A stretch of 64,000 bases of DNA from Bacteroidales bacterium (lineage in GTDB: Bacteria > Bacteroidota > Bacteroidia > Bacteroidales > GCA-2748055). The stretch's first letter is position 1, and every line of letters starts with the position of its first letter. The notes under the pieces are model-generated. The model had not been told where the DNA came from. It saw only the letters and a list, made by a program, of their open reading frames with translations, and did not search any database. The DNA is taken from NCBI GenBank assembly GCA_021738565.1, contig JAIPBT010000014.1:25821-89820 (forward strand), given 5' to 3'. The position numbers and the translations under genes are program-made. This document shows, piece after piece, positions 7,799-51,259 of the stretch.

Positions 7799-8605
7799 AT
7801 GCATAAGATCAAGCGAAGAGAGGCCCTGAAGTTGATTGGTTTAGGATCCGCCTACCTGGCCGGAGGAGCTCAGTTTTCCTGCAAGGGAAAAAAACAACAC
7901 ATCATAACACTCAGCTTTGATGACGGTTTTGAGAAGTCCAGTATCGAAACAGCACGGATCTATGAAAAATACGGGTTGTCCGCCTCGATCAATGTGATTG
8001 CCACAGCACACCTGGAAGGATTTGAACTGCCCAATGAATACCATGCCTGGCCGGCCGGGGATTTTGAACTATGGAACGAACTGCAGGACAAAGGACACGA
8101 GATCATGCCTCATACTTACAAGCATGTCAATCTTACACAGGTGCCTTTTGAGCAGGCCACCAGCCTGATAATGAAATGCTTCGATGTATTTGCCGAAGAA
8201 CTGAAAGGATTCAGGCAGGAGAATGCCGTGTATGTTTTTGCACACAATGCTTCCACACCAGAGCTGGAAGAATGGCTGGCCCCCCGGGTAAGGGCATTCC
8301 GCACGGCAGGCGGAGTTTTTAATCCACTGCCATACATAGGCCAGAAAAAGCTTACCTGCGGCAGCCACGGTCCGGAGAATATAGACAGGGCTTTGGAAAA
8401 AGCTGTGAATGAATTTCTTGATGGTCCATCCGGCTGGTTCATCTTTAACACACATGGCCTGGATGAAGAGGGCTGGGGACCCATGAGTTCAGGTTTTCTG
8501 GATGAGTTGCTTGACCGGCTCGTTAATCATGAATCTGCCAGTGTACTGTCCGCAACCCAGGCTTTGGATCTTGCAATAGGAGGGACACACAAACTTACTG
8601 ATTGA
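7799..8605 (+). CDS. Polysaccharide deacetylase (CE4/NodB-like) with twin-arginine signal
   Basis: 268 aa. Carries the Tat-like KRREALKLIGLG motif, the NodB-type motif ITLSFDDGF, and the His motif MPHTYKH. The start lies 4 nt after the upstream stop. Confidence 0.65.
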   Translation: MHKIKRREALKLIGLGSAYLAGGAQFSCKGKKQHIITLSFDDGFEKSSIETARIYEKYGLSASINVIATAHLEGFELPNEYHAWPAGDFELWNELQDKGHEIMPHTYKHVNLTQVPFEQATSLIMKCFDVFAEELKGFRQENAVYVFAHNASTPELEEWLAPRVRAFRTAGGVFNPLPYIGQKKLTCGSHGPENIDRALEKAVNEFLDGPSGWFIFNTHGLDEEGWGPMSSGFLDELLDRLVNHESASVLSATQALDLAIGGTHKLTD

Positions 8606-8800
8606 GACCATATGCAGGAGATTAAATTTTCTGGGATACTTGGTTTAATGAAGGTCCGTAACTGCTTCATCAACTGCAAGCTGTTCAGGCAAGAAAAAAT
8701 GAAACCATGCAGCAACTGGATTTAGAATTAAAGAATTGGCTGGTGAAAATGGAAGATCCGTTCAAGCTAAATTGATAAAAAAACCAAACAGACTGACACT

Positions 8801-17823: not shown

Positions 17824-19887
17824 ATGATGAGAAATTTGATTATTGGATTGTTTTGCCTGACACTGTTTTCATGTATGAAACCGGAGAATAGGCAGCTGTT
17901 ATTGTTCGATCCAGGAAATGAGGGTAAGGAAAAGCTGGTATCCCTTACTGATGATGCACTCTATTTTGATGACCAAAGCGTCAGGGTGGATTTTTCGTCG
18001 GCCAATAAAACATCCGTTATTGCATGTTATCCGGATAATGGACCCTGGGATGCATCTGAATACCGGTTTGTACGGTGTGTTGTTGAGAATCTGGGAAGTG
18101 AGCCGCAGATCGTGGAACTTGGATTTGCCGACTACGATCTTACATTGGGGGCCACTATTGTACAGCCTGGCAAGACAAATACTTTGAAAGCTGTAATCTA
18201 CAGAACAGACCACCCTGCGTATATCGACAGCCTGTTTCCTGTCATGCATGGCAAACCCGACGGTACATTGAGAGGTTGGATGGATTCTACGTCCGATTCT
18301 ATCGCGTTTATTAAGCTGTTGTTTCCGGAACTCACGCCGGGGGCATCTGTAAAGATTGGAAAAATATGGCTGGAGGAGCCTTACGTCCTCTATTCTGAAT
18401 CGCAGTTAAGGGAGAAATATTATCCGTTTGTGGATAGGTTTGGACAATTTATGTACGATGAATGGCCCGGGAAAATTGAGTCTGTTGATGACCTGGTCCG
18501 GTATGATGAGCAAGAAACAAAGGAGCTAGAAAACATGAGGCCAGTGAAGGCGTGGAACAGGTTTGGCGGCTGGGAAAACGGTCCAGCCCTGGAAGCCACC
18601 GGAAGATTCAGGGTGGAGAAAATTGATGGCAGGTGGTGGTTCGTGGATCCGGATGGTAAATTGTTCTGGTCTCATGGTCAGGATTGTGTAGAGTTTGGTA
18701 CCCAGACAAGGACACAGGTAACCGACCGGGAGCATTATTTCCAGGAATTACCAGAAGAGGGAAGTGAGGAAACCGGACTTTACACAACGAGCGAAAGCGA
18801 AGGCAACACCACCAGGTTTTTAAGCTTTCATGCATTGAATATTTTTAGAAAGTATGGCGTAGATTGGAAAGAAAAGAGCAGGGAGCGGCTCCATGCAAGA
18901 TTCAAAAACTGGGGTTTCAATACCATTGGTAACTGGTCCGATCCGGGAATTTATCTGAAGCGGAAAACACCTTATGTCTTAACGGCCTACTCCCTTAAAA
19001 CCGGTATACTGTCCGATCCTTTTGCTCCCGGCTTCAGAGAGGACCTGGAAGCTACCCTCAGGGCACACAACAACGAGATTGGTGATGAGTGGTGTCTTGG
19101 GGTGTTCGTGGATAATGAATTGAAATGGGGAGTAAAATGGGCGCCTAAAATTGCCGAACAGATTATAACAGCACCAGCCGATCAGCCTGCAAAACTGATT
19201 TTAGCAGAAAGGATGCAGGAGAAATATGGAACAATTGAGGGATTGAATGAAGCATGGGGCACCTTTTTCGGGGGTTGGGAAGGTTTATTGTACAATTGTG
19301 AATTGATACCGGGTGCAGCAGTTGATATGCGGGAGTTTATGACAGAATTCACCACACGCTATTATGCAAGCTGCAGAAGTGCCGTAAAAGCGGTAGATGA
19401 AAAGATGCTCTACATGGGATGCAGAATGGACTTCCACCTCTATCCTGAAGACACCTCACTGAACTACATAATTCGTATTGCTTCAAAGTATTGTGACGTG
19501 GTAAGTTTTAACCGTTATCGTTATACCTGTTCAGGGTTGGTGCCTCCTGACGGAGGTGATTATCCCATCATTATCGGGGAGTTTCACTTTGGTTCCCTTG
19601 AAACGGGACTCCTACAACCTGGCTTGCGGTATGCGGCCGACAATCAGGAGCGAGCGGCTTTCTATGAGCACTACGTACGCAGTGCCCTTATGAATCCCTA
19701 TATCGTGGGAACCCACTGGTTCCAGCTTGTGGACCAGTCGGTGACCGGACGGCCGGACGGTGAAAATTACCAGGCCGGTTTTCTTACCGTTGGGGATGTG
19801 CCACAGCAGGAGATCATCAAGGTATCAAGGGCCCTGGGTTATAATATGTACAATATCAGGTCCGGTGTTGATCATTTTCAAAAGTGA
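17824..19887 (+). CDS. Putative (beta/alpha)8 glycoside hydrolase, GH50/GH42-like lipoprotein (family uncertain)
   Basis: 687 aa with a lipoprotein signal (LTLFSCMK). Clan GH-A-like motifs: WGFNTIGNWSD, VFVDNELKWG (NE acid/base) and IIIGEFHFGS (nucleophile-like). The start lies 11 nt after the sulfatase stop. Confidence 0.5.
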   Translation: MMRNLIIGLFCLTLFSCMKPENRQLLLFDPGNEGKEKLVSLTDDALYFDDQSVRVDFSSANKTSVIACYPDNGPWDASEYRFVRCVVENLGSEPQIVELGFADYDLTLGATIVQPGKTNTLKAVIYRTDHPAYIDSLFPVMHGKPDGTLRGWMDSTSDSIAFIKLLFPELTPGASVKIGKIWLEEPYVLYSESQLREKYYPFVDRFGQFMYDEWPGKIESVDDLVRYDEQETKELENMRPVKAWNRFGGWENGPALEATGRFRVEKIDGRWWFVDPDGKLFWSHGQDCVEFGTQTRTQVTDREHYFQELPEEGSEETGLYTTSESEGNTTRFLSFHALNIFRKYGVDWKEKSRERLHARFKNWGFNTIGNWSDPGIYLKRKTPYVLTAYSLKTGILSDPFAPGFREDLEATLRAHNNEIGDEWCLGVFVDNELKWGVKWAPKIAEQIITAPADQPAKLILAERMQEKYGTIEGLNEAWGTFFGGWEGLLYNCELIPGAAVDMREFMTEFTTRYYASCRSAVKAVDEKMLYMGCRMDFHLYPEDTSLNYIIRIASKYCDVVSFNRYRYTCSGLVPPDGGDYPIIIGEFHFGSLETGLLQPGLRYAADNQERAAFYEHYVRSALMNPYIVGTHWFQLVDQSVTGRPDGENYQAGFLTVGDVPQQEIIKVSRALGYNMYNIRSGVDHFQK

Positions 19888-40359: not shown

Positions 40360-41013
40360 ATGGCTGTACCTGATGACGAAAAATATGTCAAATCTTTGAT
40401 CGCCGAGGGTGAACACGGGCGGCTCGATTTTAAGTTTGAGATCAGCAGTGCAAAAAAAATTGCCAAAACCCTTGTTTCTTTTGCGAATACTGAAGGAGGA
40501 AGGCTGCTGATCGGCGTAAAAGACAATGGAAGGGTCAGTGGTGTAAGGACCGACGAGGAATACTACATGATAGATGCTGCTGCATCACTTTATTGCAAGC
40601 CATCCCTTTCGTTTGAAAGCTTTCACAGGGAGGTTGACGGAAAAACAGTGCTTGAGATCGAAATCCGGCACTCTGAAAAAAAACCGCATTTTGCAAAGGA
40701 TGAGAATGGCCGGTGGCTGGCCTATCACAGGGTGCTGGACAAAAACTACCTGGCAAATAAAATCCAGCTCGGGGTATGGAAACGTGAAAAACGAAGGCAG
40801 GGAACATTTATTGAATACACGGAAAATGAAAAAGAGATACTTCAGTACCTGAATAATTTTGAGTCCTCCACATTCCATGTGCTGAAAAACGAATTCAACT
40901 GGGGTACCAGGAAACTGCAGAACATCCTTATCAACCTGGTATCCCTGCAGGTTGTTTCAATGAATTACAATGAAAACGAGATGGTATTCAGTATTTCCGA
41001 CAGGATACACTGA
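40360..41013 (+). CDS. AlbA_2 (Schlafen-like, divergent-AAA) DNA-binding domain protein with C-terminal wHTH-like region
   Basis: 217 aa. EGEHGRLDFKFEISSAKKIAKTLVSFANTEGGRLLIGVKDNGRVSGV is the typical AlbA_2 N-terminal pattern (E-x-LEFK ... AFANT-GG-L-IGV-D-G). Confidence 0.65.
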   Translation: MAVPDDEKYVKSLIAEGEHGRLDFKFEISSAKKIAKTLVSFANTEGGRLLIGVKDNGRVSGVRTDEEYYMIDAAASLYCKPSLSFESFHREVDGKTVLEIEIRHSEKKPHFAKDENGRWLAYHRVLDKNYLANKIQLGVWKREKRRQGTFIEYTENEKEILQYLNNFESSTFHVLKNEFNWGTRKLQNILINLVSLQVVSMNYNENEMVFSISDRIH

Positions 41014-42444: not shown

Positions 42445-43302
42445 ATGGAAATAAGCGATGCAGATATCAGGGAATTTCAGACTGCCGTAAAACAACATTC
42501 TGTATATGACTTCAGCCAGTATTCATTCAACTCATTGAAGAGAAGGCTGATAAAGATCATTGAGGAATACGGCAATGACCTTAGCACGCTCACTGACAGC
42601 ATCAGTAAAGATGGCAAACTGGTTGAGGAAATTATTAAAAAAATAACGGTTGGAACAACAGAGCTCTTCCGTGATCCCCAGGTTTGGAAAAAGCTGATGC
42701 TGCATGTACTGCCCAGGTACCGGAAGCACTCCAATATCAATATTTGGCATCCGGGTTGCTCAACGGGCCAGGAAGTCTACTCGATGATGATCCTTCTTGA
42801 CCAGCTTGACATGCTTGACAGGTCCCGCATCTATGCAAGTGATATCAACCAGGACCTTCTGGAAAAAGCAAAAGGCGGAAGCTACGGCCTGCGTTTTAAC
42901 CAGTCATATTTTGATAATTTCAACAAGGTGTTCTCTGTCAATACACGGGATCAGGTCGCTTTTAATTCATTCGACAAATATTTCCAATCCGATATCACAT
43001 CAGACCGGATCATAATGAATGACTACCTCACCAGCAAACCGGTGTTTCAAAAAATTGACCTGATCAACGAAGGAAACCTGTTCCCGTTGAAATTTGACCT
43101 GATCATATGCAGGAATGTTATCATTTACTTTAATTTCGAGCTGCAGAACAGGATATTGAAACTATTCCACAACAACTTAAGATCAAATGGCTTCCTTGTC
43201 CTCGGACTGCACGAATCGATTGTCGGTCCGGCTACCGTATTGTTCAACAAATTCGACGATTTCTACATAAAAAGAAACGAAAATGATATTTATTCATCAT
43301 AA
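42445..43302 (+). CDS. CheR-type SAM-dependent protein methyltransferase
   Basis: 285 aa. The CheR N-terminal helical domain is followed by TELFRDPQVWKKL and IWHPGCSTGQEVYSMMILL (SAM site), then DLIICRNVIIYF. Confidence 0.8.
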   Translation: MEISDADIREFQTAVKQHSVYDFSQYSFNSLKRRLIKIIEEYGNDLSTLTDSISKDGKLVEEIIKKITVGTTELFRDPQVWKKLMLHVLPRYRKHSNINIWHPGCSTGQEVYSMMILLDQLDMLDRSRIYASDINQDLLEKAKGGSYGLRFNQSYFDNFNKVFSVNTRDQVAFNSFDKYFQSDITSDRIIMNDYLTSKPVFQKIDLINEGNLFPLKFDLIICRNVIIYFNFELQNRILKLFHNNLRSNGFLVLGLHESIVGPATVLFNKFDDFYIKRNENDIYSS

Positions 43303-43508
43303 TATCACAAAAGGCAATGAATAAATGGTATTAATCGCCTCTGCTTCATCTGTTGTTTTCTGAAATTTTCTAATTAAAAAATTCATCCTGACAGGTTTTA
43401 TCTGTATATTTATCTGCCCGGTCCATACAGAATGCTCAAAAATAAACAATCGCACTGTGGCAGGGGGCATATCTTTAGTGCTTGTCAATAAAGTCGGGTG
43501 GCTGGATC

Positions 43509-43613
43509 ATAATGTTCGTTTGCAAGGCATGCGAAGTCGGGAAATGCGGAGTCCCGATATATCATCGGGATGAGTAATTTCCCGACGAGCGTAACGCAGC
43601 AAACGGACATTAT
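43509..43613 (+). other. 105-nt extended imperfect hairpin (three stacked stems) 22 nt upstream of the SiaB-like start codon
   Basis: Outer stem: ataatgttcgtttgc (43509-43523) pairs with gcaaacggacattat (43599-43613), 15 bp with one mismatch. Middle stem: gtcgggaaat pairs with atttcccgac (10 bp). Apical stem: tcccgat (43552-58) pairs with atcggga (43564-70), with loop atatc. Confidence 0.8.
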
Positions 43614-43634
43614 GGACAGACACTCTTAAGTCTT

Positions 43635-44201
43635 ATGAACAATAAAAGGGGATATTTTGATGCAATCAGTGAGTTCTATGATGACTTGCCTGACAGTGAG
43701 ATCATCCTGGCTTTTGATGGTGATGTCACACACCAGGTAATGAAAGCTTTCGTATCATCCGTGGAAGACAGGCTGGAAAGGGAAAACGAAAATGAAGCTT
43801 CACGGAACAGGCTGTATCATGTCCTGGTGGAGTGCCTGCAAAACATCAACAGGCATGCAGATGACCAGGAGCCGGTTGATGTGGAATTCTTTCCCGGCAG
43901 GGGGGGGATCCTGCTTAGCAGAACCAATAAAAAATACTGTTTGGTTACAGCCAACATCATCAGGAATGAAGAAATTCCCGAATTGAAGGAAATGCTTGAG
44001 AAGATCAACCCCATGAAAGATGAAGAATTGAATTTGCTTTATAAAAAACAGCTCACAGAAGGACAATTATCCTCTAAAGGAGGAGCAGGACTGGGATTTA
44101 TAGACATCAGGAGAAAAACAGGCAACAAAATGGAATTCAAATTTGTCAGCAAAGAAAAGGAGACTTCCTTTTTTCTTCTGAACATAACTGTAAACAGATA
44201 A
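43635..44201 (+). CDS. SiaB-like GHKL-fold Ser/Thr protein kinase (anti-sigma-factor-kinase-like)
   Basis: 188 aa. N-box-like LVECLQNINRHA and G-box GGAGLGFIDIRRKTGN. It sits immediately upstream of a DUF1987 gene, the same arrangement as siaB-siaC. Confidence 0.55.
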   Translation: MNNKRGYFDAISEFYDDLPDSEIILAFDGDVTHQVMKAFVSSVEDRLERENENEASRNRLYHVLVECLQNINRHADDQEPVDVEFFPGRGGILLSRTNKKYCLVTANIIRNEEIPELKEMLEKINPMKDEELNLLYKKQLTEGQLSSKGGAGLGFIDIRRKTGNKMEFKFVSKEKETSFFLLNITVNR

Positions 44202-44207
44202 CTTACT

Positions 44208-44588
44208 ATGGCAGCTTTGAAAATCGAACCCGGAGATGATACTCCAATGGTTATACTGGACAAGGAGCATAACAAATTTGAAATATCAGGAAAATCAATG
44301 CCGGCAGATGTGCGGAGCTTCTATCAACCTGTGCTTGATTGGGTGTCTGCCTATACGGATGATCCGCTTGATAAAACAATATTTGACTTTAAACTGATCT
44401 ATTTCAACACCTCCTCTTCCAAGATATTCCTGGATATTTTTATGATGCTGGAGGAATTATCCGAAGCGGGCAAAGAGGTACTTGTAAGATGGCATTCCGC
44501 TGAACCTGATGAGGACATGCAGGATGCAGGAGAAGAGTATGCAGAAATGACCGAATTGCAATTCGAATTCCATACATACGAATTTTAG
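44208..44588 (+). CDS. DUF1987 protein (SiaC-like regulatory phosphoprotein)
   Basis: 126 aa. TPMVILD...FEISGKSMPADVRSFYQPVLDWV...FDFKLIYFNTSSSKIFLDIF...VRWHSAEPDEDMQDAGEEY matches the DUF1987 pattern. The start lies 6 nt after the kinase stop. Confidence 0.7.
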   Translation: MAALKIEPGDDTPMVILDKEHNKFEISGKSMPADVRSFYQPVLDWVSAYTDDPLDKTIFDFKLIYFNTSSSKIFLDIFMMLEELSEAGKEVLVRWHSAEPDEDMQDAGEEYAEMTELQFEFHTYEF

Positions 44589-44601
44589 GCATTAAGAACG
44601 A

Positions 44602-47600
44602 ATGAGTGAAGAGATTCTACGTGCATTGATGGAATTATTCGCCATCATCATCAAGCAGGATGGCGGATTATCGGAAAAAGAAAAAGAGTACGTCCGCAAG
44701 TTTCTGGTGCAGCAAATCGGGATCGAATCCGCCGATGCCTATTTTTCATTGTTTCTTCAAAACGCCACTGATGAAAAAGTCACAGAAGATGACGGTCAGA
44801 AAAAGAAAAAGCTGACCTCTGTCCTGGATTCTGTAAAGACCTTGCGCATCGGGAAAAAAATCAGCAAAACGCTTAATCAGCGGCAAAAGATAGTAGTGCT
44901 GGTAAGGGCACTTGAACTGATCTATACCGAATACAATCTTACCGACCAGCGTTTGGGGATCGTGGAAACCATCGCTGATGTGTTCAAAGTGAACAAAGAT
45001 GAATACAACAGCATCATGCGTTTCATCAAGGCTGCAGAGGACAAGGATCTAAATGATCCAAACCTGCTGGTGATTCACCCCGGAGTCCCGCCGGAAGGTA
45101 GCACACATGCCATCCAGGCTGAAGGTCTTGATGAGCTTATCATCCTGCTGAGGGTCCCGTCTGTGGAACTCTATTTTATGAATTATTGCGGCACACTGGA
45201 AGTATTGCTCAACGGACACCATCTTCAGTCACGGAGTATTTACCTGCTTGCCAACGGAAGCAGCATCAGGCTTCCCGTGGGTGTGCCAATCTATTACAGT
45301 GATATTACATCGGTATTTCTCTCCCCGGGAAACAAGGACAAGATAATACTTGAGGCTGACGACCTCTGTTACAAGTTTCCCGGAAATGTAACAGGACTAG
45401 AAAAAATCAGTTTCATCGCCGACCAGGGCAACCTGGTCGGGATCATGGGAGCCAGCGGCTCCGGTAAAACCACCTTGCTGAATGTATTAAGCGGGATGTA
45501 TAACCCCTCATCGGGATCCGTGCGCATAAATGGCATCGATCTTTTCAGAGATAAAGAACAACTGAGGGGAGTGATTGGTTATGTTCCCCAGGATGACCTG
45601 CTGGTAGAAGAACTCACCGTATTTGAAAACCTTTTCTACAGCGCAAAATTTTGTTTCAGGGACCTGGACAACGACGAAATCAAAAAGAAAGTAATTGAAA
45701 TGCTGGACACCCTGGGGCTGCTCAGGAAAAAGGACCTGAAAGTCGGCTCTGTGATGAATAAAACCATCTCGGGAGGTCAGAGAAAAAGGCTTAATATCGC
45801 ACTTGAACTGATCAGGGAACCCGCTGTCCTGTTTCTCGACGAACCGACTTCAGGACTCTCTTCCAGGGACTCTGAAAATGTGATGGACCTGTTGCGGGAG
45901 CTTGCGATCAAAGGCAAACTGATTTTCAATGTGATCCACCAGCCTTCCTCGGAACTGTATAAAATGTTCGATATGGTAATCGTTCTTGATGAAGGCGGAC
46001 GAATGATCTACTTTGGAAATCCCGTTGAGGCGGTAATTCATTTCAAAAAGATCGATAACCAGGTTAACTACGGTGCGGGAGAGTGCCCGGTATGCGGAAA
46101 TATCAATCCTGAGCAAATCTTCAGTATCGTCGAAGCACGCCAGGTAGACGAATTTGGGAATTATACGAGCCGCAGAAAGATAAGTGCTCAAAAATGGCGG
46201 CAATTTTTCGAATCGGAAAGGACTGTAAAGGAAAGAAAGCAGGAAGCAGAGAAGCCGCCTTCAAAACTAAATGTCCCCGGCTGGTTCGGCCAATTTGTCA
46301 ATTACCTAAAAAGAGACTTTAAAGCAAAGATCAGCAACCGGCAATACCTTGGCCTTGTGCTTGGCGTTTCACCAATACTTGCAATCATACTTTCATACAT
46401 CATCAGGTATATAGCTGATCCCACCAGTCATACTTATGTTTTCAGGGAAAATGAAAACATACCGATCTATATTTTCATGGCAATCATTGTGGCCCTGTTT
46501 CTTGGCCTCATCATGAGCGCGGAGGAGATCTATCGCGACCGCAAGATACTGAAAAGGGAGAAATTCCTGCACCTCAGCCATTCATCCTACCTCATTGCAA
46601 AGATCAGCAACATAACATTGATGGCGGCCATGCAAACCATCATATTTGTTCTGATAGCCAACACTGTGCTTGGAATATACGGGATGACCTTCCATTACTG
46701 GTTTGCCCTTTTCTCTGTAGCCGTTTGTGCTAACTTTATCGGGCTGATCATCTCCTCCGCATTCAACTCGGCTGTAACAATTTACATCATTATCCCCCTG
46801 GTGATGATCCCCATGATGGTACTCAGCGGAGCAATGTTCAGCTTTGAAAAGCTCAACAGATCAATTACCAGTGTGAACAAAGTACCGCTCATTGCAGAGG
46901 CCATGCCTACCAAATGGGCATTTGAGGCGCTGATGGTCAGACAGTTCAAGAACAACCGGTTTGAAGAAAATTTCTTTGAGATTGAAAGAGAGATCAGCAG
47001 GACAAATTTCCAGTCGGCCTATTACATCCCGGCCCTGGAGGAAAGATTGTCTCTGGTCATGGATGAGTTTGAAGAAAAAGGCAGGATCAGGGAGACACAA
47101 CAGGAACTCCTGGTGCTGAAAAATGAAATACTGCGACAGCAGGACAGCATCGGAGTTTCAACATTCAACAGGGAAACCTTCAATCCGGGAAATTTCACAG
47201 ATCAAACCTACTCGGAAATAACTGCATTTTTTTCTGAATTGAATGATTATTACCTGGAACAGTTCTCAAAAGCAAACAGGATCAAGCAAGACATGCTTAA
47301 CCAGATCATGGAGGAGCACCGCGAACTTTATTATAGTCTTCTTGACAAATACCACAATGAAAGCGTTTCAGATCACGTAAAAAAGATCTATGAAAAAAAC
47401 AAGATCATTGAATCTGATGGCAGGTTATACCAGCAGACCGACCCTGTATTCCTCTACCCTGAATCGTTCCGCTCTCATTTTTATGCGCCTGTAAAGAAGG
47501 CCTTTGGAACCTACATTGATACATACTGGTTCAACATTGTATTCATATGGCTAATTTCTCTCCTCCTGTATGTTATACTCTATTTTGATCTGCTCCATAA

Positions 47601-47628
47601 GCTGATCAGTTCATCCCTTTTTAAATAA
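44602..47628 (+). CDS. ABCG/ABC-2-type transporter (fused NBD-TMD) with N-terminal TerB-like domain, a possible degenerate FHA-like module and a long C-terminal extension ending in an extra TM helix
   Basis: 1008 aa. TerB-like LMELFAIIIKQDGGLSEKEKEYVRKFL. Walker A GASGSGKTT, Q-loop VPQDD, signature ISGGQRKRL, Walker B LFLDEPTSGL and H-loop VIHQPS. ~6 TM helices span aa ~560-800, with a terminal TM YWFNIVFIWLISLLLYVILYF. Confidence 0.8.
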   Translation: MSEEILRALMELFAIIIKQDGGLSEKEKEYVRKFLVQQIGIESADAYFSLFLQNATDEKVTEDDGQKKKKLTSVLDSVKTLRIGKKISKTLNQRQKIVVLVRALELIYTEYNLTDQRLGIVETIADVFKVNKDEYNSIMRFIKAAEDKDLNDPNLLVIHPGVPPEGSTHAIQAEGLDELIILLRVPSVELYFMNYCGTLEVLLNGHHLQSRSIYLLANGSSIRLPVGVPIYYSDITSVFLSPGNKDKIILEADDLCYKFPGNVTGLEKISFIADQGNLVGIMGASGSGKTTLLNVLSGMYNPSSGSVRINGIDLFRDKEQLRGVIGYVPQDDLLVEELTVFENLFYSAKFCFRDLDNDEIKKKVIEMLDTLGLLRKKDLKVGSVMNKTISGGQRKRLNIALELIREPAVLFLDEPTSGLSSRDSENVMDLLRELAIKGKLIFNVIHQPSSELYKMFDMVIVLDEGGRMIYFGNPVEAVIHFKKIDNQVNYGAGECPVCGNINPEQIFSIVEARQVDEFGNYTSRRKISAQKWRQFFESERTVKERKQEAEKPPSKLNVPGWFGQFVNYLKRDFKAKISNRQYLGLVLGVSPILAIILSYIIRYIADPTSHTYVFRENENIPIYIFMAIIVALFLGLIMSAEEIYRDRKILKREKFLHLSHSSYLIAKISNITLMAAMQTIIFVLIANTVLGIYGMTFHYWFALFSVAVCANFIGLIISSAFNSAVTIYIIIPLVMIPMMVLSGAMFSFEKLNRSITSVNKVPLIAEAMPTKWAFEALMVRQFKNNRFEENFFEIEREISRTNFQSAYYIPALEERLSLVMDEFEEKGRIRETQQELLVLKNEILRQQDSIGVSTFNRETFNPGNFTDQTYSEITAFFSELNDYYLEQFSKANRIKQDMLNQIMEEHRELYYSLLDKYHNESVSDHVKKIYEKNKIIESDGRLYQQTDPVFLYPESFRSHFYAPVKKAFGTYIDTYWFNIVFIWLISLLLYVILYFDLLHKLISSSLFK

Positions 47629-47663
47629 AATTCCCTACCTTTGGAGATAGAAATACCTTCCAT

Positions 47664-48557
47664 ATGAAGCCAAACATTATTTATGTCTTCCTGATGGTCC
47701 TGTTTCTTGCATCATGTGGCAACAGGAATAATGAAGACCTTTCGGTGGCCTACCGGGAAGCAGAGATGGAAGAACTTCTGGTTTCTGAAGAAGCCATGAA
47801 TGAAGTTATTGAAAACATCGCATCTCCCATTGAAGTTGCATCAATGCTGAATGATCTTGAAGTTCCCTTCTCCGTCACCTACCTCTCCAACCCGGAAAAC
47901 ATGTCAAGCTACTCCACCAGCTATGAAATGGCATTCAATCTGGGAGCGTTGAGTTCAGACCTGGGTTACCTGAACATGTACAACAAAACCGGAACAGCAA
48001 TCAATTACCTGAGCACCATCAACAGGCTTACCGAAGCACTTGAGGTTGGCCAGTTTTTTGATTTCGTTAAAATGAAGCGCCTGGCAACGAGTGAAAACAA
48101 CCTTGATTCATTGCTCTTCACTTCCATCAACAGCTTTAACCGGATGGACAAATACCTGCAAAACACAGATCGAAGTAACCTCAGTGCGCTGATGGTATCC
48201 GGTGTTTGGATCGAAGGTTTTTACCTGGCAACACAGGTCTATGAAAAATCAGAAATTGAGCAGGTCAGGGATGTAATAGGTGAACAGAAACTGATTCTAA
48301 ATGATCTTTTGATCATACTGAACAATTATAAGTCAATTGAATATTTTCAGGATATTATAGCTGACTACGAAAAACTAAAAAAACACTTTGACAATGTAAA
48401 GATCACCTATGAGATAGATGAACCAGAAACTGTTGAGATTGACGGGATGCTGATGGTCGTGCAGGCAGAGTACAGCACGATAGAAATGAGCGATGAAACG
48501 CTCGACAGCATCATCCGTGTAACGGAAGAAATTCGTGACAAACACCTCAACATCTGA
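47664..48557 (+). CDS. Hypothetical helical lipoprotein
   Basis: 297 aa with the lipobox VLFLASCGN, starting 35 nt after the ABC gene stop. No family was recognised. Confidence 0.5.
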   Translation: MKPNIIYVFLMVLFLASCGNRNNEDLSVAYREAEMEELLVSEEAMNEVIENIASPIEVASMLNDLEVPFSVTYLSNPENMSSYSTSYEMAFNLGALSSDLGYLNMYNKTGTAINYLSTINRLTEALEVGQFFDFVKMKRLATSENNLDSLLFTSINSFNRMDKYLQNTDRSNLSALMVSGVWIEGFYLATQVYEKSEIEQVRDVIGEQKLILNDLLIILNNYKSIEYFQDIIADYEKLKKHFDNVKITYEIDEPETVEIDGMLMVVQAEYSTIEMSDETLDSIIRVTEEIRDKHLNI

Positions 48558-48561
48558 TGCC

Positions 48562-49014
48562 ATGAGAACAATATACCACATAGCAATATTGATACTGTTC
48601 CTTGGCGCAACAGCTTTCATTCCCCAGGATACATCTACCGATGTAATGGAATGTGCTGAAAAAGCCGGTCCCTCGGCAATATATTTAAAAGACTTCAGGG
48701 TTGAACTTCCTGCAGCCAAATCCGGGGAGCCGCCGCCGATGTTTAGACAGGCAATTGTACTGCGCGGCAACAACATTTACCGTTTCAACCTGTGTAATTC
48801 GAAAGGTGAAGCGGTGATCAGGATCTATGATTCTTCAAAACTTATTCTCTCTTCCTACGATCCTGCAACCAAAAAAGAGTCAAATCCGATATCTTTCCTC
48901 TGCAGGAAAACAGGGCCATACAACATTGTGATCACCTTTAAGGATGGAAAGGAAGGAGAAGCAATCGGGATCATGAGCCACGTTAAAATTAATGAAAGCC
49001 GGAGGTCAAGGTAA
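48562..49014 (+). CDS. Hypothetical small secreted protein
   Basis: The ATG at 48562 (MRTIYHIAILILFLGATAF signal) is preferred over 48535, which would overlap the upstream gene. It lies 4 nt after the upstream stop. No family was recognised. Confidence 0.4.
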   Translation: MRTIYHIAILILFLGATAFIPQDTSTDVMECAEKAGPSAIYLKDFRVELPAAKSGEPPPMFRQAIVLRGNNIYRFNLCNSKGEAVIRIYDSSKLILSSYDPATKKESNPISFLCRKTGPYNIVITFKDGKEGEAIGIMSHVKINESRRSR

Positions 49015-49219: not shown

Positions 49220-51259
49220 ATGAAAAAAGCTGCGATCATATTGCTGCTGGTCCTCCCCTCGTTCCTGATCTGCCATTCCAAAGTGGGATCAGAACCGGTT
49301 ATCCGTGGTATTTCTTCTGATGCAGCTTCAGAGATTGTTATCGATTCGGTCATTACAAGCAATCCTTCGTGCTCGGGCGACAACAATGGAAGTATAACCA
49401 TCATTGCCAGTGGAGAAAACAAACCATTTCAGTACTCAATAAATGGAACCGATTATCAATCCGATTCCACATTTAACAATATACCGGCCGGAGCTTACCA
49501 TATTTATGTAAAAGATGCAGGTGATATTGAAATCAGCGGTCCTGAAATAACAATTGAGAATCCTCCGGTACTTTCCTTATCTTCCTTTGATATCAACAAT
49601 CTTTTTTGCAACGGGGACAATTCCGGGGCAATGATCATCAGGGCAAGGGGAGGAACACCGCCCTACCGGTATTCCCTTGGTAACTCATTCTCAGAGGACT
49701 CCGTATTTACCGGACTTGCTGCAGGAAACTACAATGTGACTATTGTTGACGACAATGGCTGTGAACTCATACAGACAGGCATTGAGATCACCGAACCCCC
49801 TGTCTTAAGTGTCACTGAAACTGAGAAAAATGACCTGGAATGTTACGGAGATAATTCAGGATCAGTTTTTATCAGGGCAGATGGCGGGCTGAAACCTTAC
49901 GAGTATGCTGTTGAAGGTTTTTACCAGTCAGACTCATTGTTTACAGGGCTGGAAGCAGGACCATATACAGTCACGATCCTCGATGAAAACGGCTGTGCTG
50001 CCATTGGACCTACTGTAACACTTACACAGCCCGAGCCGATCCTTACTACCGTTGCTGAAAAATCCGATGTATTGTGTGTCGGTGACAGCAATGGCTCATT
50101 CAAAGTCAGGGCCAGCAATGGCACAGCTCCTTACATCTATTCCATAGACGGCGGCAATAGTTACCAGGACGATTCTGTATTCAGCCAATTGGTTCCGGGA
50201 ACCTATAAAATTCTTACAAAAGATGCCGAAGGATGTAAGATGGCCGGCCCGGGCATTCAAATTGAAGAACCGGATTCCATTGCACTTGATTTTGATATTG
50301 AAGATGCCCTCTGCTACGGCGATTCAAGCGGAAATATAACTGTTGTTGCATCCGAAGGGACACCGCCTTACAGCTATTCCCTGGACAGTGAAACCTACCA
50401 GGTCGATTCCGTGTTCAATACCCTTACAGCAGGAACCTACGATATCTACGTTAGGGATTCCAATGATTGTCCTGCCGAAACAACCGGAGTGCCGGTATCC
50501 CAGCCGACTGAACTGGTTGTTTCGGGCATCGAAACCAACGGGGCCCTTTGTTACGGTGACTCTTCCGGCAGCCTTAACATAGAAGCCGGCGGAGGAACAC
50601 GGCCATACAGGTACTCTGTCGATGGTATTAATTTCCAAAGCGACTCATCCTTCATGAACATATCAGGCGGAAGGTACCAGGTGCATCTGCTCGACTCGAA
50701 TCAATGTGAGAACGAACCTGCTTTTGCGGAGATCAGCGAACCGGATTCACTCACCGTTAATGTAACTTGCACTGAACATATATTCAGCGATTCTCCCGGG
50801 GAGATCGTCGCGGAAGCATCGGGAGGAACCGCTCCCTACCTGTATACATTGATGCCCGGAGGTACGGAACAGGACAACGGGGTGTTCATTTTTGAAACCC
50901 CGGAAGAGGCAGGCACCTATACTGTTGAAGTGAATGATTATTATGGTTGCGGACCGGTATCCACGGAAAACATTGATATTATTGACAGCACCTTTAACGC
51001 AGTCTTAAACCTTTATGCAGGGAAAGTGAAGATCTACCCAAATCCCTCATCAGGAGTGGTAACCATTGAATTCGGGACCGACAAGCCGGAAATGAAGCTG
51101 GAGCTGATAAGCATCGACGGAAGAAAGGTCTACACTCAAAAATTGATAAACACCAATGGGTCCGTACATGAGATCCTTGACCTTGCAGGTATCAGGAAAG
51201 GCTTCTACTTTATTCGGATCGACGGACTTACGATGAAAGGCGGACTGATCCTGAGGTGA
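49220..51259 (+). CDS. SprB-repeat cell-surface protein with T9SS C-terminal sorting domain
   Basis: 679 aa with a signal peptide. There are seven ~78-aa repeats of the form C-x-G-D-x-(N/S)-G-x-(I/F)...GG-x-x-PY-x-YS...Q-x-DS-x-F-x-x-L-x-AG-x-Y-x-(V/I)...D-x-N-x-C. The tail is VKIYPNPSSGVVTIEF...GFYFIRIDG. Confidence 0.8.
   Translation: MKKAAIILLLVLPSFLICHSKVGSEPVIRGISSDAASEIVIDSVITSNPSCSGDNNGSITIIASGENKPFQYSINGTDYQSDSTFNNIPAGAYHIYVKDAGDIEISGPEITIENPPVLSLSSFDINNLFCNGDNSGAMIIRARGGTPPYRYSLGNSFSEDSVFTGLAAGNYNVTIVDDNGCELIQTGIEITEPPVLSVTETEKNDLECYGDNSGSVFIRADGGLKPYEYAVEGFYQSDSLFTGLEAGPYTVTILDENGCAAIGPTVTLTQPEPILTTVAEKSDVLCVGDSNGSFKVRASNGTAPYIYSIDGGNSYQDDSVFSQLVPGTYKILTKDAEGCKMAGPGIQIEEPDSIALDFDIEDALCYGDSSGNITVVASEGTPPYSYSLDSETYQVDSVFNTLTAGTYDIYVRDSNDCPAETTGVPVSQPTELVVSGIETNGALCYGDSSGSLNIEAGGGTRPYRYSVDGINFQSDSSFMNISGGRYQVHLLDSNQCENEPAFAEISEPDSLTVNVTCTEHIFSDSPGEIVAEASGGTAPYLYTLMPGGTEQDNGVFIFETPEEAGTYTVEVNDYYGCGPVSTENIDIIDSTFNAVLNLYAGKVKIYPNPSSGVVTIEFGTDKPEMKLELISIDGRKVYTQKLINTNGSVHEILDLAGIRKGFYFIRIDGLTMKGGLILR

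Follow-up and report, generated by a model that had tools for sequence, protein, structure and literature searches.

A SiaB/SiaC-type switch encoded beside an ABCG-type exporter in Bacteroidota, and a Bacteroidales locus that appears to have lost the sensor and phosphatase genes

Partner switches are bacterial regulatory devices that control sigma factors, diguanylate cyclases and the expression of secretion genes. In the SiaABCD module of Pseudomonas aeruginosa, the kinase SiaB and the PP2C phosphatase SiaA, which is membrane-anchored and carries a HAMP domain, set the phosphorylation state of SiaC, and SiaC in turn controls the diguanylate cyclase SiaD. Direct control of an ABC exporter by such a phospho-switch is known as a hypothesis only, put forward for MlaB. 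The present analysis concerns a stretch of 64,000 nucleotides (nt) from a Bacteroidales bacterium (GenBank assembly GCA_021738565.1, contig JAIPBT010000014.1, positions 25,821 to 89,820 of the forward strand; the window hereafter), in which genes for a SiaB-like kinase and a SiaC-like (DUF1987) protein directly precede the gene of an ABC exporter. An earlier note, made from the letters of the window, had described this pair as a switch without SiaA phosphatase or SiaD cyclase, coupled to the exporter and to a CheR-like methyltransferase. With a probability of about 0.6, the locus is a truncated form of a two-half Bacteroidota cluster, in which the half encoding the sensors and a PP2C phosphatase has been lost and the SiaB/SiaC switch gates the exporter.

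In P. aeruginosa, SiaB phosphorylates SiaC at T68, which blocks effector binding, and SiaC binds and activates the adjacent effector solely with T68 unphosphorylated; those who characterised DUF1987 proteins proposed that they modulate the product of the neighbouring gene (PMC8457831). Two further systems link regulatory proteins of related kinds to ABC transporters. The STAS protein MlaB binds and regulates the ABC ATPase MlaF, and a phosphomimetic substitution at its switch Thr weakens the binding (PMC7367683). In Mycobacterium tuberculosis, the exporter Rv1747, which joins a nucleotide-binding domain (NBD) and a transmembrane domain (TMD) in one chain and bears FHA domains, is activated via phosphorylation by the co-operonic kinase PknF (PMC3138270).

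The locus in the window comprises the following features, with lengths in amino acids (aa) and with L numbers denoting the loci used for comparison.

42445..43302, plus strand: CheR-type S-adenosylmethionine-dependent methyltransferase, 285 aa (PF01739, 117.7 bits, plus CheR_N)
43303..43634, no strand: non-coding spacer of 332 nt, deletion junction as judged from synteny with L008, L010 and L011
43506..43625, plus strand: one copy of a dispersed palindromic (REP/MITE-like) repeat, hairpin stem 43508-43614
43635..44201, plus strand: SiaB-family (DUF6272, GHKL-like) protein kinase, 188 aa (NF038262, PF19788)
44208..44588, plus strand: SiaC-family (DUF1987, STAS-like) phosphoprotein, 126 aa (PF09345; T68 codon 44409-44411)
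44602..47628, plus strand: ABCG/ABC2-type half-transporter, 1008 aa (Pfam ABC_tran and ABC2_membrane)
47664..48557, plus strand: conserved lipoprotein, 297 aa (lipobox; no family match)
48562..49014, plus strand: small secreted protein, 150 aa, last gene of the module (signal peptide; no family match)

The six open reading frames (ORFs) all lie on the plus strand, are intact and full-length, and follow one another at gaps of 332, 6, 13, 35 and 4 nt, exactly as the earlier note had laid them out. For the small protein an alternative GTG start is possible at 48535, upstream of 48562; the latter is favoured because the gene calls of relatives give 148-150 aa. Profile hidden Markov models (HMMs) agree with the identities proposed for the CheR, SiaB-like, DUF1987 and ABC genes. 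The kinase reaches 147.7 bits with the SiaB-family model NF038262 (cut-off 85) and 122 bits with PF19788 (DUF6272), the phosphoprotein 130.4 bits with PF09345, and the transporter 120.8 bits with ABC_tran (residues 266-417) and 75.4 bits with ABC2_membrane (564-782). Against P. aeruginosa SiaC (PDB 6kko_C, E = 4e-15) the SiaC-like protein gives a gapless alignment in which N67-T68-S69 occupy identical positions, and T68 is invariant in 84 of 84 orthologues; the SiaB-like protein aligns to 6kko_A, the P. aeruginosa SiaB chain, at E = 1.5e-7, its E..QN and GAGLG motifs are in register, and it keeps 38 of 40 family-invariant positions. Since neither protein reaches the cut-off of the P. aeruginosa equivalog models (63.5 against 225 bits for NF038264, 82.7 against 150 for NF038265), and the SiaB model at family level is the only one passed, sequence places the two as family members and not as orthologues of the P. 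aeruginosa proteins.

The SiaC-like protein of the window deviates at four family-conserved positions, including A69S and E33A. At residues 68-69 (44409-44414) it has Ser69, as in P. aeruginosa SiaC, where all 83 other cluster-associated orthologues have Ala; position 33 is conserved in 82 of 83. Within the window's own clade, its SiaB shares 54-61% identity with relatives, whereas intact relatives at equal ABC divergence share 67-72% with one another. Faster evolution of SiaB once the phosphatase is lost would fit this apparent excess inside the clade; the excess was seen neither family-wide nor in other lineages without PP2C.

The state of the locus becomes intelligible when it is set beside its three closest relatives (L008, L010 and L011; 71-74% ABC identity), which are syntenic with the window on both flanks. 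Common to all on the left are a GFO_IDH_MocA oxidoreductase, SLFN_AlbA_2 and PurQ on the minus strand, then CheR; common on the right are SiaB, SiaC and the ABC protein, followed by the lipoprotein and the small protein in L008 and L010 and not in L011. The window CheR is 53-58% identical, over its full length, to the CheR of these three loci. Compared with them, the window is missing 5.7-6.4 kb between CheR and siaB, where relatives carry three to five sensor genes. No remnant of the lost sensor, GAF or PP2C genes was found in the gap or in the 64-kb window (tblastn; hmmsearch --max), and neither a PP2C nor a GGDEF gene was detected in the window by tblastn and HMMs built from relatives' proteins or by a Pfam scan of the large ORFs. 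PP2C is present in 68 of the 71 loci judged, including all close relatives that share the flanks, so that by parsimony the state of the window is a secondary loss. These comparisons indicate that the window's lineage lost about 6 kb of sensor, GAF and PP2C genes between CheR and siaB. The absence of a SiaA-type phosphatase therefore stands as a description of this window and fails as a property of the system.

The same comparison accounts for the methyltransferase. Neither CheB nor a methyl-accepting chemotaxis protein (MCP), CheA or CheW is encoded in the window, and the Pfam lists of the relatives' clusters contain no MCPsignal, CheA or CheW. The gene had been noted as lacking a visible partner; in relatives its partners are GAF/PAS sensors, usually CheB and often a second CheR. 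Judged from gene order, CheR belongs with these proteins and regulates neither switch nor exporter, and the copy in the window is an orphan of the deletion, formerly the first gene of the ancestral sensor block. Clusters of the Alkaliflexus/Marinilabiliaceae type additionally encode, besides the short CheB, a REC-CheB protein (receiver plus methylesterase, 367 aa) that precedes the GAF/PAS sensor (L038 240-1340; likewise L029, L030, L056, L059 and L085), and the domain scans made revealed no CheA, CheW or MCP beside it.

To survey the cluster more widely, an alignment of the ABC-specific N-terminal module was used as a profile for searching species genomes, as the whole exporter, used as a single-protein query of genome contigs, retrieved unrelated Firmicutes ABC genes alone. 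The module occurs in at least 584 species genomes, all of them Bacteroidota, among them those of the cultured strains Alkaliflexus imshenetskii DSM 15055, Carboxylicivirga linearis, Carboxylicivirga sp. N1E11, Draconibacterium orientale and Marinilabiliaceae bacterium ANBcel2; the exporter family forms a large set of Bacteroidota homologues of about 1000 aa. Neighbourhoods were scored with one custom HMM per component at 80 species-genome loci and seven metagenomic loci (87 in all), counting for each component those with enough flank. SiaC was adjacent in 81/83 and SiaB present in 77/77, PP2C lay directly upstream of SiaB in the 68/71 given above, and the lipoprotein and small protein were adjacent in 72/75 and 68/70. 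Among the sensor-block genes, the small GAF protein was present in 63/68, CheR in 54/59, CheB in 47/59 and a pair of CheRs in 36/51. The pairing of SiaB and DUF1987 genes with TerB-ABC genes, suggested from one window, thus recurs across Bacteroidota, and SiaB, SiaC, ABC protein, lipoprotein and small protein form a very conserved module of this phylum. A cognate PP2C also proves to be a conserved partner elsewhere, as the earlier note had considered, and the ABC gene does not vary freely around it.

The complete arrangement is seen in the seven metagenomic homologues (55-74% ABC identity), whose Pfam annotation reads CheR, GAF-PAS, in some cases CheB, GAF, PAS-GAF-SpoIIE, DUF6272, SiaC and ABC. 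The sensor block of relatives consists of a GAF-PAS-PAS protein of about 780 aa, sometimes CheB, a GAF protein of about 250-280 aa with a hydrophobic N-terminus, and a GAF-PAS-PAS-SpoIIE (PP2C) phosphatase of about 860-870 aa. Genes for proteins of about 297 and 150 aa follow the ABC gene in six of the seven, L011 being without them. GGDEF is absent from the window cluster and these seven, and across 88 clusters there is no unassigned gene-sized gap and no ORF with a GGDEF motif inside any; nor do the relatives' clusters encode a DNA-binding or other effector gene. The lack of a GGDEF partner, reported for the window, is accordingly general among the clusters examined, and because of it the exporter is likely to be the output of the SiaB/SiaC pair.

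Linkage of SiaB, SiaC and the ABC gene holds at ABC identities down to about 44-55%, is so tight that start and stop codons overlap in L005, and is kept where the sensor block has been lost or moved. The loci without PP2C are two from Carboxylicivirga (L078 and L089) and L031. In Carboxylicivirga the five-gene core has other neighbours and lies behind genes for an asparaginase and for a separate small TerB protein; in L031 the gene at the PP2C position encodes a 724-aa GAF-PAS protein without a SpoIIE domain. On at least three occasions, then, the core has been parted from its phosphatase, by loss or by separation, and its five genes stayed together; since the core persists without the sensor block in Carboxylicivirga and with the PP2C-less gene in L031, the SiaB-SiaC-ABC unit coheres independently of the block. 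In L089 (Carboxylicivirga linearis), a 124-aa TerB-like protein (PF05099, 23.5 bits) is encoded at 8271-8645, just upstream of siaB. L064 (860-10909) is the sole locus with an ABC homologue and without SiaB/SiaC, and two large Reg_prop/Y_Y_Y-SpoIIE (PP2C) genes follow there on the opposite strand.

The exporter itself is closest, by sequence, to the ABCG/PDR exporters: it matches TIGR00955 at 2e-79, under the cut-off of that model, ABCG2 aligns to residues 272-748 (NBD and TMD), and the top PDB matches are ABCG1, ABCG5, Pdr5 and Cdr1. Its domains are a TerB-like helical bundle (residues 1-143), an FHA-like beta domain (about 155-240), the NBD (about 250-490), the TMD (about 564-782), a cytoplasmic extension of about 190 aa and a terminal transmembrane helix (979-997); by hydropathy the TMD has five clear segments, and the single terminal helix follows the extension. 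An AlphaFold2 model of residues 1-260, built from an eight-sequence alignment (predicted local distance difference test, pLDDT, 78.5), shows a seven-helix bundle followed by the beta domain. In Foldseek searches the bundle matched 2h5n (probability 0.96, TM 0.56), and the beta domain matched the FHA domains of MEK1, Rad53, RNF8, EssC and DgcB at probabilities of 0.96-1.0, with a root-mean-square deviation of about 3 A over about 80 columns and weak E-values (0.003-0.3). About a third of the listed exporter homologues carry a precomputed PF05099 (TerB) match, and the N-terminal 159 aa of the window exporter score 21.2 bits against a cut-off of 24.4, covering profile positions 3-116 of 118. Pfam FHA gave no match in the window exporter at E <= 10, and a profile of the beta-domain family found the MEK1 FHA domain as its best PDB match at E = 0.069. 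Across 86 orthologues, S187, N204 and G205 alone are conserved among the candidate phosphothreonine (pThr) sites and R184 is variable; the conserved signature, LRxPSVxLYF...Y.G...LNG...YYSD, contains by sequence neither of the canonical G-R and S-x-x-H pThr-binding elements, so phosphopeptide binding is not to be assumed for this domain. The TerB and FHA-like N-terminus first proposed for the exporter consequently holds at the level of the predicted fold; its TerB match is sub-threshold, a Pfam FHA match is lacking, and canonical pThr residues are not recognisable by sequence.

Two envelope proteins complete the module. The lipoprotein has the lipobox LASC with Cys18 and 2630 homologues, all named hypothetical and none with a Pfam domain; its AlphaFold2 model (pLDDT 80.2) combines a helical bundle with a four-stranded sheet, for which a fold search returned no credible PDB match (probabilities <= 0.3). 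The small protein is 59-72% identical to its relatives, and in both proteins all family-invariant positions are kept. The lipoprotein is presumed to be a periplasmic partner of the exporter. At L021 (9992-13966), the ABC and lipoprotein genes form one ORF of 1325 aa, which is also found in a protein database (P0106, 1322 aa). A designed fusion was considered and rejected, because the lipoprotein start codon and lipobox stay in frame, as expected from read-through of a lost ABC stop codon; the ORF is weak evidence for a physical link. Downstream of some clusters lies a lasso-peptide-like set of NTP_transf_5, Asn_synthase-like, HPr_kinase_C-like, sulfotransferase and PqqD genes (L003 11687-17024, L004 11732-17060, L005 12888-16988, L013 and L016), which the window does not have; its occurrence at about 5 of 55 loci ruled it out as a part of the system or a clue to cargo.

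The spacer at the deletion junction holds the hairpin that had been seen in the 332-nt gap. It consists of a 16-nt outer stem (43508-43523 with 43599-43614, 94% complementary) around a 23-nt inner stem, about 107 nt in total, and the folding energy computed for the 131-nt region is -69.6 kcal/mol, compared with -33.6 +/- 3.2 for shuffled sequences (z = -11.3; 0 of 200 shuffles as stable). A blastn comparison of the gap with related loci gave intergenic matches in L054 (14506-14623, minus strand) and L058 (615-731, minus strand), and a degenerate pattern made from the common boxes was used to collect further copies in Bacteroidales genomes. At least 107 loci were obtained, with more than 25 copies in one metagenome-assembled genome and with both orientations occurring; the loci that carry copies include L092-L171. 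Among the copies analysed, 115 of 117 are intergenic; their lengths cluster at 106-110 nt, all fold stably, and their orientation relative to flanking genes shows no strong bias. In a 24-copy alignment, 11 of 19 predicted pairs carry compensatory changes and one U.G pair is invariant, as are the boxes AATGTTCG, CAAGGC, AACGCAG and CGGACATTATGGACAGAC. Rfam gave no match, either at gathering thresholds over the whole window or at E <= 1 in the gap, and an exact 22-mer of the hairpin loop had no match in metagenome contigs. The hairpin thus belongs to a palindromic repeat family that is dispersed in many copies through Bacteroidales genomes, which ruled out its reading as an operon-specific regulatory structure.

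In a profile search the window yielded one repeat copy, located precisely at the junction of the deletion, and 2 of the other 87 cluster loci yielded copies as well; compared with other copies, that of the window is about 60% identical in the median and about 80% at best. As the sole copy in the window sits exactly at the junction, the element may have been involved in the deletion. The family resembles repetitive extragenic palindromes and bacterial interspersed mosaic elements (REP/BIME) or miniature inverted-repeat transposable elements (MITE-like) in being short, imperfectly palindromic, multi-copy, mostly intergenic and placed in either orientation; it differs from them in its invariant sequence boxes, its compensatory stem changes between genomes and the lack of an Rfam family. 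In relatives, the spacer between PP2C and SiaB has a median of 38 nt and little structure, by which a conserved structured leader upstream of siaB was ruled out; a recurrent TATATTTA motif in it lies too near the start codon and is too AT-biased to interpret.

Set against SiaABCD (PMC8457831; 10.1101/674879), the Bacteroidota cluster has in common the SiaB-family kinase, the DUF1987/SiaC protein with its N67-T68-S69 positions, the PP2C encoded immediately upstream (in the window's relatives) and a tight operon with the presumed effector beside siaC. However, the place of the GGDEF cyclase SiaD is taken by an exporter of the ABCG type, together with two envelope proteins, and the relatives' phosphatase has cytoplasmic GAF/PAS sensor domains, with CheR/CheB and further GAF/PAS proteins encoded alongside; from the window copy the phosphatase is entirely lost. 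In MlaB-MlaF, likewise, a small STAS-like protein whose phospho-switch position is a conserved Thr is encoded together with an ABC transporter, whereas MlaB has no dedicated kinase or phosphatase, its phosphorylation is unproven, and Mla is an MCE-type lipid transporter of separate subunits; the Bacteroidota cluster has a complete kinase, ancestrally a phosphatase, and a fused NBD-TMD transporter of the ABCG type. Rv1747 shares the fused NBD-TMD architecture, an N-terminal FHA-type module and a Ser/Thr kinase in the same operon. Its FHA domains number two and are of the canonical pThr-binding kind, and the exporter is itself the substrate of the kinase, which is Hanks-type; the Bacteroidota system has one FHA-like fold, degenerate and preceded by a TerB-like bundle, a GHKL-like kinase and, as the likely intermediary, SiaC. 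With RsbU/RsbV/RsbW the cluster shares a PP2C phosphatase, a GHKL-type kinase, a STAS-fold phosphoprotein and sensory domains on the phosphatase; unlike there, no sigma or anti-sigma function is evident and the output would presumably be post-translational control of the transporter. A partner-switching variant with an ABC exporter as its presumed output thus appears to be new, and direct coupling of SiaC to the exporter is plausible by analogy. In the searched literature no description of the Bacteroidota cluster was found, in keeping with the earlier suggestion that the system may be undescribed.

By analogy with SiaABCD and other partner switches, SiaB would phosphorylate SiaC at T68 and the PP2C would remove the phosphate. 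One phospho-state of SiaC might then bind the exporter, at its TerB/FHA-like N-terminus, the NBD or the cytoplasmic extension, and turn export on or off, with the lipoprotein and small protein acting alongside the exporter on the periplasmic side. Methylation by CheR, opposed by CheB, would tune the GAF/PAS sensors. In the window, SiaC may be locked in the phosphorylated form or served by a phosphatase encoded elsewhere: with no phosphatase in cis, most of it should carry the phosphate if no other PP2C works in trans. CheR would there have lost its neighbouring substrates. A wider reading extends this scheme to a pathway of at least 584 Bacteroidota species, in which SiaB/SiaC directly gates the exporter via the TerB/FHA-like N-terminus, the GAF/PAS input adapts by CheR/CheB without MCP, CheA or CheW, and the window is a natural phosphatase-null variant; it is put forward tentatively, at somewhat less than even odds.

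Several observations weigh against a truncated cluster with a gated exporter. Conserved adjacency is equally expected from mere co-expression of the five genes, and a PP2C encoded elsewhere in the genome may act in trans, since the absence of the phosphatase covers the 64-kb window. The deletion is supported by a single assembled contig, and no second contig with an identical window SiaB is on record. On the protein side, the FHA-like domain has no recognisable canonical pThr residues, no Pfam FHA match and a best sequence-level E of 0.069; TerB scores under the Pfam cut-off; and the modelled lipoprotein has no structural relatives in the PDB. Some of these points lend themselves to another account, in which SiaB and SiaC control a distal target, such as a transcription factor or an enzyme, and the ABC protein, lipoprotein and small protein are co-transcribed cargo. 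Adjacency is the sole link of switch to exporter, and L064 has the ABC gene without SiaB/SiaC. Against this stand the extremely tight linkage (6 and 13 nt, with overlap in L005), its persistence at low ABC identity and after loss or relocation of the sensor block, the lack of any DNA-binding or other effector gene in the clusters, the roughly 250 aa of extra cytoplasmic domains of regulatory type on the exporter, and the proposal that DUF1987 proteins modulate the product of the adjacent gene (PMC8457831). A distal target is unlikely on this balance, and the case for the exporter as the plausible output, first made from the window, has been strengthened by the linkage, the lack of another effector and the regulatory-type domains.

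The remaining accounts concern the window more than the family. The locus might be a non-functional remnant, decaying after its input half was lost, and the lower identity of its SiaB and the SiaC changes, A69S (unique, next to T68) and E33A, are what decay could produce. Yet all six ORFs are full-length, SiaB retains 38 of 40 invariant positions and the envelope proteins all of theirs, the SiaB divergence does not recur family-wide or in other PP2C-less lineages, and Carboxylicivirga species keep the five-gene core without the sensor block, so that decay is rather improbable. An assembly artefact, with the sensor/PP2C block of the real genome lying between two repeat copies that were mis-joined, would fit a multi-copy repeat placed exactly at a junction seen in one contig; but copies differ greatly from one another (for the window copy, a median of about 60% and at best about 80% identity), the element is a mere 107 nt or so, no second copy exists in the window, the rest of the 332-nt spacer is unique sequence, and intact close relatives have no repeat at the equivalent junctions, which leaves this account with little credence. 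Least credible is the original proposal of a native minimal switch without PP2C or cyclase, in which CheR methylation and SiaB phosphorylation jointly control the exporter. The window is truly without PP2C and GGDEF genes, CheR is encoded on the same strand with 332 nt between it and siaB, and in Carboxylicivirga, too, the core has no phosphatase gene next to it; synteny nevertheless largely refutes it, as a PP2C directly precedes siaB at nearly all loci, including every flank-sharing close relative, and the relatives' CheR goes with GAF/PAS proteins and CheB, three to five genes away from siaB.

A scan for sigma-70 promoters and terminators stayed at background level. PADLOC gave generic ABC-ATPase matches alone for the NBD (mad3, mad8, AriA, AbiLi) and no match of any defence model to SiaB, SiaC, the lipoprotein or the small protein, which ruled out an anti-phage defence system. 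Between the cluster and purD, 49220-51259 encodes a 679-aa protein with seven SprB repeats and a type IX secretion system (T9SS) C-terminal sorting domain; relatives have other genes at this position (NTP_transf_5 or the lasso-like set). A Schlafen/AlbA_2-domain gene at 40360-41013 (PF04326, 73.7 bits), without a PADLOC match, lies upstream of purQ in the three closest relatives too. In the upstream part of the window, 867-23654 is a glycan-utilisation region. Its products are two GH2 enzymes, of which one is LacZ-like (1249 aa), a DUF5107-TPR protein, a pair of FAD_oxidored proteins, of which one has a Golvesin_C domain, a GH26 with a T9SS tail and, from 17824-19887, a 687-aa protein without a Pfam match.

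For annotation, the locus teaches that a component missing from a single window can be the result of a recent deletion. The analysis adds two unannotated families of envelope proteins with thousands of members, a family of dispersed, structured Bacteroidales repeats for which Rfam has no entry, and an example of CheR/CheB paired with soluble GAF/PAS proteins instead of chemoreceptors. In the Bacteroidota cluster, a complete set of kinase, phosphatase and phosphoprotein stands beside a transporter with dedicated regulatory domains, a conserved case that is experimentally accessible in cultured Alkaliflexus, Draconibacterium and Carboxylicivirga. If the wider pathway reading is true, partner switches would gain an output of a new class and chemotaxis-type methylation a new role, and the natural phosphatase-less variants, in the window and in Carboxylicivirga, would predict which phospho-state is tolerated constitutively.

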